Shown in pieces: positions 12,747 to 57,813 of a stretch of DNA of 57,813 nucleotides. A program made the position numbers and the translations under genes. The stretch comes from an uncultured Candidatus Saccharibacteria bacterium (GTDB taxonomy: Bacteria > Patescibacteriota > Minisyncoccia > UBA9983): NCBI GenBank assembly GCA_964372755.1, contig CAYJQX010000005.1, positions 1-57,813 of the forward strand, given 5' to 3'. Position 1 is the first letter of the stretch; every line of letters begins with the position of its first letter. The notes beneath the pieces were generated by a model. The model did no database searches and was not told the DNA's origin. It was given only the letters and a program-made list of their open reading frames with translations.

Positions 12747-13757
12747 ATGAATTTTGCCAAAAAAGAGCCGAAGAAACTAAAAACAACAAACGCCGGATTA
12801 GAGAGCGCCCTAGACGACATAAAAGCAAAGTTCGGCGATGGCGCCATTATCCGTTTAGGCGAAGCGCCGAAAGTGGATGTCAATGTTATTCCCTCCGGTT
12901 CTCTGGCCGTAGATATCGCCTTAGGAGTTGGCGGTGTTCCCCGAGGACGCGTTCTGGAAATCTTCGGCCCGGAGTCATCAGGCAAAACTACTCTGGCTCT
13001 CCATATCATAGCCGAAGCCCAAAAAAAAGGAGACATTTGCGCTTTTGTTGATGCCGAACACGCCCTTGATCCCGAATACGCAAAGCGTATCGGCGTAAAA
13101 ATTGACGATCTGCTTGTTTCCCAACCCGACACCGGCGAGCAAGCTTTGGAAATAACCGAGAGCTTGGTACGCTCCGGAACAGTCGGCGTGATAGTGGTGG
13201 ACTCCGTAGCCGCTTTGACTCCCAAAGCGGAAATAGAGGGAGAGATGGGTCAATCCCATGTTGGGTTGCAGGCAAGACTTATGTCTCAAGCCTTAAGAAA
13301 GCTCACTTCCATTGTTGCCCGAAGCAAAACAGTGGTTATTTTCATAAATCAAATCAGAATGCAGATCGGCATCATGTTTGGCAATCCCGAAACAACTCCC
13401 GGAGGAAAAGCCTTAAAATTTTATGCTTCCGTTCGCATTGAAGTCCGCCGAGCGGCCCAGATCAAAAAAGGGGAAGACGTGGTGGGAAGCCGAACCAAAG
13501 TCAAAGTGGTCAAAAACAAAGTGGCCGCTCCTTTCCGCACCGCTGAATTTGATATTTACTACAACGAGGGTATTTCTTACGAAGGGGATGTCATTAATAT
13601 GGGAGAAAAATACGGCGTTATCAAAAAATCCGGCGCCAGCTATTCTTATGAGAAAACCAGCCTCGGGCGAGGTTATGACAACGCGAGAACTTTCCTCAAA
13701 GAAAACAGCAAAATCACTAAAGAAATAGTGAAACTCATAATGGAAAAAGCGGGATAA
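12747..13757 (+). CDS. recA: Recombinase RecA
   Basis: [38 protein letters not shown] motifs. Confidence 0.99.
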
Positions 13758-13782
13758 GTGTTTTGGGAATATTAAGCCTAAC

Positions 13783-13838
13783 AAACAAAAACGCATTGAG
13801 CGCCTATAAGTAAGGCCCGCTCAACGCGTTTTTTGTTT
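13783..13838. terminator. Bidirectional terminator between recA and convergent gene
   Basis: aaacaaaaacgcattgagcg...cgctcaacgcgttttttgttt imperfect inverted repeat. Confidence 0.65.
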
Positions 13839-13864
13839 CGGTAAAATATTCTCCCAAAAATTCC

Positions 13865-14227
13865 TTACCTGAAGGACGCCTCTTCAATGCCCAACTCTTT
13901 TTTAAATGCTCTTTTGGTAAAGTAAAACACCATGAGAATACCCGTTGCAAGAGTGAAAGTAAAGCTGATAAGCGTATCAGTACCGGCGTGAGCAAGGGCG
14001 CTTGCCACAAAATTCAACATATTTTCCAAACCCTTGGCTGATAACATAAAGTTAGTCAATATCTCCGTAAAATTAATAAGCGCCCCCAGTGTTGAAGCAA
14101 AAGCCCAAAAAAGAATTGCGTTTAAAACTAGAGGGCTTCTGAATTGCTTTACAAACCAGAAAAAATAAACTCGGCGCATAACCGCGCTTTTTAATTTGCT
14201 GTTGTTTCTTTGGTTAAATTTATCCAT
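13865..14227 (-). CDS. Small membrane protein overlapping ECF sigma gene (anti-sigma candidate)
   Basis: Two hydrophobic segments; overlaps the 3' end of the sigma factor gene; anti-sigma role inferred from position only. Confidence 0.55.
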   Translation of the reverse strand: MDKFNQRNNSKLKSAVMRRVYFFWFVKQFRSPLVLNAILFWAFASTLGALINFTEILTNFMLSAKGLENMLNFVASALAHAGTDTLISFTFTLATGILMVFYFTKRAFKKELGIEEASFR

Positions 14228-55681: not shown

Positions 55682-57367
55682 TTATTTTGAAACCTTTGCA
55701 ATCGGAAGACTCACCGTAAAAGTCGTGCCCTTCCCTTCTTCCGAAGAAAAAGAAATTTTTCCACCGTGGGCTTGGATGATGTTTTTGGCTATGTATAATC
55801 CAAGGCCAGTTCCTTCTGTTTCCATATGAAAAGCATTTCTGCTTCTAAAAAACTTTTCAAATATCCTCGGCTTATCTTTCTCGGGCACGCCAATACCAGT
55901 ATCGCTGATCGTCACTATAATTTTGCCATTTTCCGATTTCAAGAAAATCTTTATTGTACCTTCGGCAGGCGTGTACTTAATGGCGTTGCTGATTATGTTT
56001 TCAAAAGCAACGGTTATTTTTTCTTCGTCCAAAGAGAGTGGCGCGATAATTTTTACCTGTTCCTCTATTTTTAACCCTTTATTTTCTGCAATGATTCTAT
56101 TTTGACCTATAACGGAGAGCAGTACTTGGGCTAAATCAATTTTCTGAAAAGAAAATCCAAATCGGCCTTCTTCTATTCTTATGACATTCAACAAATCATC
56201 CACCAGTTCTATAAGATTTTCTGTTACCTCATTTAATTTTTCTACGTGTTCTTTTTGCTCAGAAGAAATCTTCCCGAGTGAGCCCTTGGAAAAAAGCCTG
56301 CCTATCCATTTTATGGCCGTGAGCGGAGTCCTAAGCCTGTGAGCAATCAGGGTTAAAAACTCGTCTTTTTGTCTGGATAAAGCTTCCAACCGCTTGTTTC
56401 TTTCCATCAGTTCTTTTGTCTGCTCAATTACCTTGCCCCTTAGGTTTGAAGTAAGATTCTGAAGCTGTAAAGCGAGAGCTTCTTGTTTTTCCTTCTGTCG
56501 CACTTCTTCTCTTATGCTTTTTATAAGAAACAAGCCAAGGATAAAAACAAAAATAAAAACAAAAATATCCACCAATTGATCGCCTGAATTTCTTTCAAGA
56601 AGAATTCTGGTGATAAGAAAAAACCACAAAAGCGCCACCAAAACTTCCGTCAGAACAGTCCGAACATTGAAAAGTTTGTAACGCAAAATAGCATAAGTCA
56701 TGATCATAGGATAAACGGCCACCATAAAATTAGCGTAAGGATAAATATCTACCTCAAAAACCGGCAAAAAAGCAGTCAGACCGCCGATTAATCCGGTCAA
56801 GGTGGCAAGCATAAAATATTTTGCCTGCATTCTTTTTCCCTCTTCTATTTTTTTATTTCTTGAAAACATCCAGAGCCGGTAATGAGAAAGGCCAAGAAGA
56901 CAAACAAAAAAGAAGACAAATAAAACATAGAGATCCGACGGAGGAGAATCATAATAAAAAGAACCGAAAACAAATCTCATTGATTCAATAAAATAAGGAG
57001 TGAGATTTAAAACCAGAAAAAAACCAGCGACAGAATAAACCGCCAAAGCCTCCATTTTTCTCCGCAAACCAAGAAACGAGTAAGTGAAAGCGTAATAAAC
57101 AGTTGGAATAAGGATAACTCCACCATGAGCCACTCGCCACCAGAATCTTGCCGCTTCAGGCATTGAAGCAGTTGCAACAAAAAATATTCCTAGTCCGTAA
57201 AGCGCCACGGAAAAAGCCTCCAGACACCAGAGTTTGGTGGCTTGATTGCGAAAACCTTTTACAAAAACATAAATGCCGAAAGCAAAATTTGTGATAAAAA
57301 TAAGGATACCCGAAATAGCAAAGGGATTAAGGTGAGAAAATAATGAATAAAAGTTCATTTTAAGCAA
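55682..57367 (-). CDS. Sensor histidine kinase with N-terminal multi-TM domain
   Basis: AHRLRTPL H-box, NIISNAIKY N-box, DTGIG, GTGLGL and GGKI boxes; ~9 N-terminal TM segments. Confidence 0.95.
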   Translation of the reverse strand: MLKMNFYSLFSHLNPFAISGILIFITNFAFGIYVFVKGFRNQATKLWCLEAFSVALYGLGIFFVATASMPEAARFWWRVAHGGVILIPTVYYAFTYSFLGLRRKMEALAVYSVAGFFLVLNLTPYFIESMRFVFGSFYYDSPPSDLYVLFVFFFVCLLGLSHYRLWMFSRNKKIEEGKRMQAKYFMLATLTGLIGGLTAFLPVFEVDIYPYANFMVAVYPMIMTYAILRYKLFNVRTVLTEVLVALLWFFLITRILLERNSGDQLVDIFVFIFVFILGLFLIKSIREEVRQKEKQEALALQLQNLTSNLRGKVIEQTKELMERNKRLEALSRQKDEFLTLIAHRLRTPLTAIKWIGRLFSKGSLGKISSEQKEHVEKLNEVTENLIELVDDLLNVIRIEEGRFGFSFQKIDLAQVLLSVIGQNRIIAENKGLKIEEQVKIIAPLSLDEEKITVAFENIISNAIKYTPAEGTIKIFLKSENGKIIVTISDTGIGVPEKDKPRIFEKFFRSRNAFHMETEGTGLGLYIAKNIIQAHGGKISFSSEEGKGTTFTVSLPIAKVSK

Positions 57368-57445
57368 ATCTTATCTATATGCCTATTATAATTGAAAATT
57401 TTTATTAAGGCATGCGCGGGTCTTGACATTTTTTTTTGTCGTTAT

Positions 57446-57740
57446 GGCATGGAAGGTACCGGGCCACGAGGTGTCTCTTGCACCCAAATGCCGGCTCGGT
57501 AAATGTTCTTTTTTTCAAAAGAGGGAGCGCGTATGCGGACGGGACTGAAAATCCCCAATCCAAAATACGACAAAATAACCGGCGATTAAAAGTCGTCGGT
57601 GCGAAGAGCGACCAAAAACGAGAGCCATTTTCCTACACGGAAAGGCTCACTGCCTCGCGCGAGGCCACAGGTCGCCAGAGCCTAGGAAGCTCCCAGCTTC
57701 ATGACCGGCAATCCAAAACAACGATTGCCGGTTTTTTTAT
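57446..57740 (+). ncRNA. Unidentified structured RNA candidate ending in intrinsic terminator
   Basis: Continuous base-pairing potential including an H-type pseudoknot; TTGACA at 57423; terminator accggcaatc/gattgccggt plus T-tract. Confidence 0.6.
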
Positions 57741-57813
57741 CTAAGCGAAAAAAATTTTTACGCTTAGATAAATACCTATGGTACTTCAAAATCTGCTGAT
57801 TTTGAACACCACC

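Follow-up and report, generated by a model that had tools for sequence, protein, structure and literature searches.

Orphan structured non-coding RNAs (ncRNAs) of bacteria, such as raiA, HEARO and OLE, are independently transcribed, run to a few hundred nucleotides (nt) and are built around a multi-helix junction. Their junctions and loops are invariant, their peripheral helices covary, and their function is not evident from genomic context. An RNA gene of the same description lies at positions 57446-57740 of the window, by which we mean the whole stretch of DNA analyzed here, the 57,813-nt contig CAYJQX010000005.1 from an uncultured bacterium of the candidate phyla radiation (CPR); the gene is located near the end of this contig. 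As to its kind, it is comparable to the orphan motifs that have come from comparative genomics: a structured bacterial ncRNA that stands alone. Unlike the motif families in Rfam, it has no covariance-model match, and its range so far covers two lineages of one Parcubacteria clade; it is apparently an undescribed RNA family with a narrow known distribution. It also resembles 6S RNA in being a stand-alone RNA of the abundant type, in its length (within 180-300 nt) and in having a promoter and a terminator to itself, and like it would act via a bound protein, but it lacks a rod-like fold with a central bubble and does not match the 6S model. Two of its traits are unusual: a mimic of a tRNA anticodon arm and a swappable central block. 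We consider it very probable that this is a real stand-alone structured ncRNA. Its elements are listed below in window coordinates; L002 and L029 are contigs that carry homologues.

57423-57428, + strand: -35 box TTGACA, a perfect consensus, invariant in the window, L002-type and L029 sequences though the flanks differ
57443-57451, + strand: candidate -10 region TATGGC / TGGCAT, which aligns with TATAGA/TAGATT of L002
57452-57739, + strand: predicted ncRNA transcript of about 280 nt, based on fold, homologues and covariation; the 5' end is uncertain by about +/-6 nt
57458-57500, + strand: 5' domain, helix P1 enclosing hairpin P1a
57505-57528, + strand: P2 hairpin with a U-rich 5' strand and a purine-rich 3' strand, found in all three independent folds
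57530-57569, + strand: P4 arm, consisting of a base helix, two internal loops and an apical hairpin
57578-57600, + strand: P5, variable hairpin A, accggcga (57578-85) paired with tcgtcggt (57593-600)
57608-57675, + strand: three-way element of P6, P7 and P8
57678-57692, + strand: P9 hairpin GAGC-CTAGGAA-GCTC, invariant, with a YUNR-type 7-nt loop
57704-57739, + strand: intrinsic terminator, a 10-bp stem ACCGGCAATC/GATTGCCGGT with a 9-nt loop and a T7 tract

The sample comprises three distinct RNA sequences (window, L002-type and L029) on seven contigs. L002 carries the closest relative of the histidine kinase encoded next to the RNA, and its RNA homologue is located upstream of, and divergent from, that kinase gene. 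The identical RNA is present in L002, L118, L119 and L120, which come from four different assemblies, while L029, from a JGI metagenome, has a divergent allele. L118, L119 and L120, which span the locus, and the partial contig L121 were reached via members of the kinase and permease clusters. The homologues were detected with nhmmer E values of 1e-84 to 1e-102. The two lineages in which the RNA is known so far are closely related groundwater Parcubacteria.

The + strand of the window folds with a minimum free energy of -111.8 kcal/mol (z = -5.85), and none of 200 dinucleotide shuffles was as good; the opposite strand of the region has a z-score of -2.64, and the two homologous versions have z-scores of -6.88 and -5.84. 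RNAalifold on the three sequences and three separate single-sequence folds yielded the same architecture. Standard pairs occupy 93.9% of the cells in the three-sequence alignment. Changes on both sides with pairing kept were found in 20 of the 89 pairs, against 0-3 after the partners were slid by 1-3 columns, and the observed covariation values were reached in none of 500 column shuffles. The RNA strand is the + strand, because about 28 G-U cells would turn into A-C mismatches on the other one. The GC content of the RNA (0.50-0.55) is above that of its local flanks. High GC was nevertheless dropped as a signal, being ordinary for this contig (mean 0.42); the contig peaks reach 0.64, and therefore the signal lies in the fold and not in composition. 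The initial annotation, made from the letters alone, had described a highly structured RNA of this size and had suggested collecting homologues for a covariation analysis. All the pairings it listed are present where it had placed them, and a structured RNA of about 280-290 nt is borne out by the fold score and by compensatory changes in almost every helix drawn.

The elements follow one another in the order P1 enclosing P1a, P2, the P4 arm, P5, P6 enclosing P7 and P8, P9 and the terminator. P1 is formed by ACCGGGCC (57458-65) and GGCTCGGT (57493-500), including the pairing of accgggc (57458-64) with gctcggt (57494-500); G-U/A-U/G-C exchanges leave it 100% paired in each of the three sequences. 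In P1a (57470-84), the ggtgt/gcacc stem changes from GGUGU/GCACC to GAACCGU/RCGGUUC in the homologues, while its CUCUU loop is invariant. P2 is also 100% paired, with one both-sides change and four one-sided changes. The base helix of P4, cgtat (57530-34) with atacg (57565-69), covaries from CGUAU/AUACG to GCAUG/CAUGC, and the arm ends in the apical hairpin GGGA-CTGAAAA-TCCC (57541-55). Both-sides changes affect five of the eight pairs of P5, whose loop and loop length are not conserved. P6, gcgacc (57608-13) with ggtcgc (57670-75), changes from GCGACC/GGUCGC to GUGGCU/AGCCAC in L029, with three both-sides changes and 100% pairing. The sequence of P7 (gagcc/ggctc, 57622-48) is replaced wholesale with the hairpin retained.

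Other parts are fixed. P8 is an invariant palindromic hairpin, CCTCGCGCGAGG (57653-64), within gcctcgcgcgaggc (57652-65); its 12-nt palindrome CCUCGCGCGAGG is invariant across all three versions, and its closing pair changes from G-C to A-U between versions. The 25-nt block AGGTCGCCAGAGCYTAGGAAGCTCC is the same in the window and L002, and from CCAGAGC onward also in L029. The segments invariant in all three sequences are the CUCUU loop, the 13-mer GGACUGAAAAUCC at the apex of P4, the GCRAASAG junction before P6, CCUCGCGCGAGG, the stretch CCAGAGCYUAGGAAGCUCC, which consists of a junction and P9, and the terminator. Two internal resemblances were seen as well: CAATCCAAAA occurs twice, on the 3' side of P4 (57556-57565) and in the terminator loop (57709-57718), and the 5' strand of P5 (57575-57591) resembles the 5' strand of the terminator (57701-57717) with 76% identity over 17 nt. 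Neither is conserved in L029, and both are probably due to chance or an old duplication. Several resemblances to known elements were dropped: an HDV-like double pseudoknot, which lacks P4/J4-2 and whose motif is not conserved in L002; a guanidine-III-like segment, ACGAGGUG, which is likewise not conserved in L002; a CsrA sponge, as the number of GGA motifs is at chance level; and a TIGR array, as there are no tandem units.

With a predicted promoter and an intrinsic terminator, the RNA is probably an independent transcription unit. In L002, the promoter TTGACA-17-TAGATT scores 10/12 and is the only good promoter there. The promoter scan did not call the window's own -10 hexamer, which is weak. 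Transcription would start at about 57452-57460, a few nucleotides before P1. At the other end, the terminator arms accggcaatc / gattgccggt (57704-32) are followed by a T run; the stem is identical in all homologues, and the terminator scan omits it since its 9-nt loop exceeds the 8-nt limit of the tool. The contig stops 74 nt past the T tract. Past the terminator lie two inverted repeats, the first an AT-rich palindrome (57736-57772; arms of 18 nt) and the second a repeat with arms of 9 nt (57785-57806), and the window sequence downstream of the RNA shows no relation to its counterpart in the L002 lineage.

A 5' H-type pseudoknot, to which the initial annotation had given prominence, did not hold up in this comparison. 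The complementarity of ggcat (57446-50) with atgcc (57488-92) is present in the window. In L002, it survives only if the register is shifted by 1 nt and one mismatch is accepted (UAGAUUG/CAACCUA), and ggcat occupies the position of the -10 hexamer of the L002 promoter. Since its 5' strand is also the site of the predicted -10 box, the pseudoknot probably falls outside the RNA and is unlikely to be part of the molecule. The same applies to a helix closing the 5' and 3' ends, which appears when the leader is included in the fold and is also unlikely.

A cmscan with all 4227 Rfam 15 covariance models at gathering thresholds, the check that had been proposed along with the first description, gave no match in the whole window, and no known family appeared. 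With permissive filters and E<=10, the 514-nt region around the RNA gave only noise (best E = 1.5), namely matches of miRNA or snoRNA models to the AT-rich palindrome and the terminator. At the same cutoff, the L002 and L029 versions gave only junk with scores far below gathering (best E of 0.68-1.5 over the three versions), and no Rfam match beyond terminator-region noise was common to all three. In an ARAGORN scan of the 57.8-kb contig from end to end, there was neither a tRNA nor a tmRNA of the standard or permuted form. P1 lacks the G3-U70 pair expected of a tmRNA, and the anticodon-arm look-alike is the only part of a tRNA cloverleaf present. The RNase P models had no match at E<=10, and the sole crossing helix spans no more than 55 nt, part of them probably promoter DNA. 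The earlier statement that the RNA matches none of tmRNA, RNase P, signal recognition particle (SRP) RNA, 6S RNA, T-boxes and riboswitches thus stands after searches with all three homologues. No description of this RNA came up in full-text searches of the literature on structured RNAs in CPR, Patescibacteria or Parcubacteria.

Six-frame translation met stops in every frame of the L002 and L029 versions. Short open reading frames (ORFs) of 16-22 codons with a Shine-Dalgarno (SD) sequence and AUG are present; they are not conserved, as a 1-nt indel shifts the frame of the invariant 13-mer. A protein search with a 102-aa ORF of the window found no relatives. Judged from its sequence, the RNA is non-coding. 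The next gene in L029, L118 and L119 encodes a convergent MacB/FtsX-type ABC permease, whose stop codon is located about 60 nt past the terminator. This identification of the downstream gene, which the initial annotation had called for, comes from the relatives and not from the window. Because this gene is convergent, the RNA is not a leader, riboswitch or attenuator; the attenuator option raised at first therefore falls away, with nothing downstream to regulate. An antiterminator between hairpin A (P5) and the terminator was also dropped, as the complementarity seen in the window is absent in L029.

The L029 and L002-type versions form an allelic mosaic. They are 100% identical over 126 nt, comprising the upstream region and the first ~30 nt of the RNA, and again over about 135 nt that begin at CCAGAGC, include the terminator and reach into the 3' end of the permease gene. 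The 5' domain has seven differences, all compatible with the structure. Between these parts, a ~120-nt block containing P5, P6 and P7 (L029:2102-2233) shows indels and a difference of about 50%. Two peripheral hairpins and a stem have been replaced wholesale, with pairing kept, between otherwise near-identical strains. The end of the partial contig L121 (1381-1443) falls exactly at the 3' boundary of this block. The differences are whole-stem replacements and not adenine-specific changes, so mutagenesis by a diversity-generating retroelement (DGR) is not their cause. Read most simply, the swap reflects either recombination with a divergent allele or an assembly that crossed into a close, co-occurring strain. 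Both readings imply a third, more distant version of the RNA and a family larger than the one sampled.

The apex of P4 resembles the anticodon arm of tRNA-Phe. The segment CGGGACTGAAAATCCCC (57540-56) is identical to the E. coli arm GGGGATTGAAAATCCCC at 15 of 17 positions, the RNA form CGGGACUGAAAAUCCCC giving the same match, and the E. coli tRNA-Phe sequence was verified against 5,426 genomes with annotated tRNA-Phe. The 13-mer at the apex (GGACTGAAAATCC in the DNA) is invariant in all versions. A tRNA-Phe-anticodon-like loop had been pointed out at the start, and it is indeed a 7-nt loop YU-GAA-AA on a GGA/UCC stem. Compared with the tRNA-Phe arm GGGGA-UUGAAAA-UCCCC, the apex GGGA-CUGAAAA-UCCC shares the U in second loop position, the GAA that takes the place of the anticodon and the two A residues that follow. 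Its stem has 3-4 bp as opposed to 5 in tRNA-Phe, and the RNA has no D-arm, T-arm or acceptor. The thrS operator of E. coli is a tRNA-mimicking operator. It is part of a synthetase mRNA, whereas here the look-alike, compared by sequence alone, belongs to a stand-alone RNA. The two invariant 7-nt loops, CUGAAAA of P4 and C/UUAGGAA of P9, both fit the YUNR U-turn pattern.

On its other side, the RNA is bordered by a two-component system.

55682-57358, - strand: histidine kinase with a seven-transmembrane (7TM) receptor domain (PF16927, PF00512 and PF02518), a neighbour outside the RNA

The histidine kinase (HK), of the HisKA_7TM type, is the first gene of an HK-RR-SIMPL-UDG-HPF operon divergent from the RNA; HK and the response regulator (RR) gene together span window:55273-57358. 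The initial annotation had also placed the RNA divergent from a sensor kinase, here with the RNA on the + strand and the kinase on the - strand, and L002 has the divergent arrangement as well. The RR is a bare receiver of 124 aa with PF00072 only, without a DNA-binding output domain. EutX/Rli55-type small RNAs (sRNAs) reportedly adjoin a two-component system and sequester its response regulator. The present RNA is similar to them as a stand-alone, terminator-ended structured RNA beside HK and RR genes, and protein sequestering is conceivable here. It differs in that the RR has no ANTAR domain, and neither a cobalamin riboswitch match nor a pair of ANTAR-type hexaloop hairpins was found. In relatives, an extra 64-aa ORF lies between the RR and SIMPL genes (L118:8068-8262).

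The closest relatives of the HK have 77% (P0002), 68% (P0003) and 52% (P0004) identity. Exact look-ups with HK and RR recovered only a 2-kb contig. The RNA was not found at the HK locus or elsewhere on the contigs of the 68% and 52% relatives (L003 and L004; 9 and 16 kb covered), where an arginine decarboxylase gene (PvlArgDC) takes its place upstream of HK. The pattern CCAGAGCNTAGGAAGCTC, with 17 specified bases from the most conserved block of the RNA, had 19 matches in 185,579 GTDB species representatives, all by chance, the sole CPR match being within an exonuclease ORF. It had 36 matches in JGI metagenomes, of which one (L029) was real, and none in IMG/VR; two other conserved blocks gave 56 chance matches and 0 matches in IMG/VR. 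Following MacB permease synteny, the nearest relatives (71% identity) do not have the RNA after the permease. In one of them (L060:7246-8060), the place after the permease gene is taken not by the RNA but by a site resembling a promoter and, on the opposite strand, a small Cys-rich ORF. Neither the window nor related Parcubacteria contigs totalling ~50 kb contained a second copy of the RNA, and blastn against phage and plasmid records gave no match to it.

Other features of the surroundings were noted. L003 has a DGR-like pair of bAvd (- strand) and RVT_1 reverse transcriptase (+ strand) genes at 132-1503, 2.5 kb upstream of the HK operon, and the contig begins 131 nt from bAvd. Toxin-antitoxin-type modules, HicAB and MazE-Fic, are inserted in relatives (L003:7722-8220; L004:5037-5458 and 13356-13978) in otherwise syntenic UDG/HPF and RarA neighbourhoods, and are absent there in the window. 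The UvrB ORF (window:50958-53075) encodes 705 aa and has an extra charged segment near GVLNSEVAQNRGERSRTRETLRLAQGEDRQP; typical UvrB is some 35-40 aa shorter.

As a best guess, held with low confidence, we propose a trans-acting protein-binding RNA that forms a ribonucleoprotein or serves as a decoy. A sigma-70-type promoter (-35 TTGACA) would start the RNA just before the stable P1/P1a domain. The U/purine hairpin P2, the multi-helix core (P4, P5, P6-P7-P8 and P9) and the strong terminator would complete a ~280-nt RNA. Its functional surface may consist of the P4 apex (GGA-CUGAAAA-UCC), the P9 loop, the CUCUU loop of P1a, P8 and the A-rich junction strands. P5, P6 and P7 would be sequence-free structural spacers, exchangeable as a block between strains. 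The anticodon-arm-like U-turn loops would be presented to an RNA- or tRNA-binding partner encoded elsewhere, with the RNA as scaffold or decoy and without cis regulation of any neighbouring gene; the likeness to the tRNA-Phe arm is what suggests a tRNA-binding partner. Taken as a whole, the proposal of a stand-alone structured ncRNA that acts in trans through a bound protein is tentative, plausible but somewhat short of probable. A bolder version seems unlikely: a class of tRNA-mimicking decoy or specificity RNAs that engage a tRNA-directed enzyme or toxin, with the swapped P5-P6-P7 block as a specificity module under diversifying selection, much as in a determinant of RNA-based immunity or compatibility among CPR episymbionts, or else a new ribozyme class.

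Several points weigh against the proposal of a trans-acting protein-binding RNA. The RNA is missing from the HK relatives L003 and L004, the context common to both lineages is on the HK side only, and there is no candidate protein partner gene in the RNA neighbourhood. The anticodon-arm look-alike has a stem of only 3-4 bp and could be due to chance, with p about 0.03 among about 8 hairpins as a rough estimate. There are just three sequences, two of them nearly identical over ~60% of their length, which makes for low covariation power. The structure was drawn from the tested sequences themselves, which favours it in the slid control, and the invariant stems could simply reflect a short evolutionary distance.

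Among the alternatives, a base-pairing antisense sRNA, whose YUNR loops CUGAAAA and YUAGGAA would kiss target mRNAs and whose expression may be under the adjacent two-component system, is possible but doubtful. Both invariant loops fit YUNR, a motif said to be typical of antisense-RNA recognition loops, and in this the RNA is similar to CopA, Sok and RNA I, with its two 7-nt loops beginning CUGA and YUAG. It is a stand-alone gene with its own terminator, divergent from the HK-RR operon in both lineages, and many sRNA genes adjoin their regulators. However, the adjacent RR lacks the DNA-binding output for such control, and in a weak test the invariant segments, compared with the translation-initiation regions of the window and L118, gave scattered complementary 8-mers at chance level, with no site common to both lineages. 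Its 280 nt, invariant stems and conserved junction core also make the RNA much larger and more elaborate than CopA, Sok and RNA I or typical seed-and-scaffold sRNAs; base-pairing sRNAs are typically simple stem-loops and not multi-helix junction cores. We favour a protein-recognized RNA over a seed-and-scaffold sRNA because invariance extends to the stems as well as the loops of P4c, P8 and P9 but not to P5, P6 and P7, whose sequence is free, and because the junction core is elaborate. The compact multi-helix form, with invariant junction nucleotides, variable peripheral helices and no family match, would also suit a trans-acting ribozyme or ligand-sensing RNA in which the junction and loops form an active site or pocket. 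This is quite improbable: the Rfam searches picked up no motif of any known self-cleaving class, an expression platform and a downstream gene are both lacking, and the sequence gives no hint of catalysis. A small-peptide mRNA, a type I toxin transcript or a CreT-like one is very unlikely. An SD-like purine run precedes an AUG in all three sequences (AGAGGGAG-N5-AUG in the window aligns with AAGGAGG-N8-AUG in L002) and opens the ORFs of 16-22 codons, but the 1-nt indel changes the frame of GGACUGAAAAUCC, and the peptides share only TGLKI, in two of three. The AUG is inside P4 and the SD-like run inside P2, both of which covary; the peptides are not hydrophobic, and the 102-aa ORF is without relatives.

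Three further explanations we regard as barely credible. A cis-regulatory leader (riboswitch, T-box or attenuator) is suggested by the strong terminator, and the nearby contig end leaves a downstream gene possible when the window is taken alone; against it stand the convergent next gene in L029, L118 and L119, the lack of riboswitch or T-box matches at E<=10, and the lack of a conserved antiterminator, the complementarity of hairpin A to the terminator being absent in L029. A highly divergent RNase P RNA, tmRNA, SRP RNA or 6S RNA missed by the models would be compatible in size, CPR RNAs can be aberrant, and none of these RNAs is found elsewhere in the 57.8-kb contig. Yet the three homologues gave no match at E<=10 and ARAGORN was negative; a long-range P4-type core, an acceptor/T-arm, a tag ORF and a rod with a central bubble are all missing; the RNA is not on the L003 and L004 contigs (9 and 16 kb only); and one would hardly expect the central block of an essential RNA to be swapped between strains. 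As for a template or guide RNA of a reverse transcriptase (RT) or mobile system (retron msr-msd, DGR template repeat (TR), DRT-type, bridge or omega RNA), the DGR-like bAvd and RT pair 2.5 kb from the HK operon in L003 and the strongly different central block could be taken in its favour. No RT, transposase, IscB or TnpB gene adjoins the RNA in L029, L118, L119 or the window, however, and the window has no RT and no second copy that could form a variable repeat/TR pair. The allele differences are compensatory stem replacements with indels and not adenine-specific substitutions, and the variable parts are self-paired helices and not single-stranded guides.

CPR bacteria have tiny genomes that are almost unexplored for non-coding RNA. 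A 280-nt multi-helix RNA with its own predicted promoter and terminator that is kept in such a streamlined genome is probably useful to the cell. The wholesale replacement of a block, with pairing kept and 100% identical flanks, suggests that alleles from a hidden pool have recombined. If confined to this clade, the RNA would be a minor lineage-specific one; if the family proves wider, it would be a new family of Rfam grade and a handle on RNA-based regulation or conflict in CPR bacteria.

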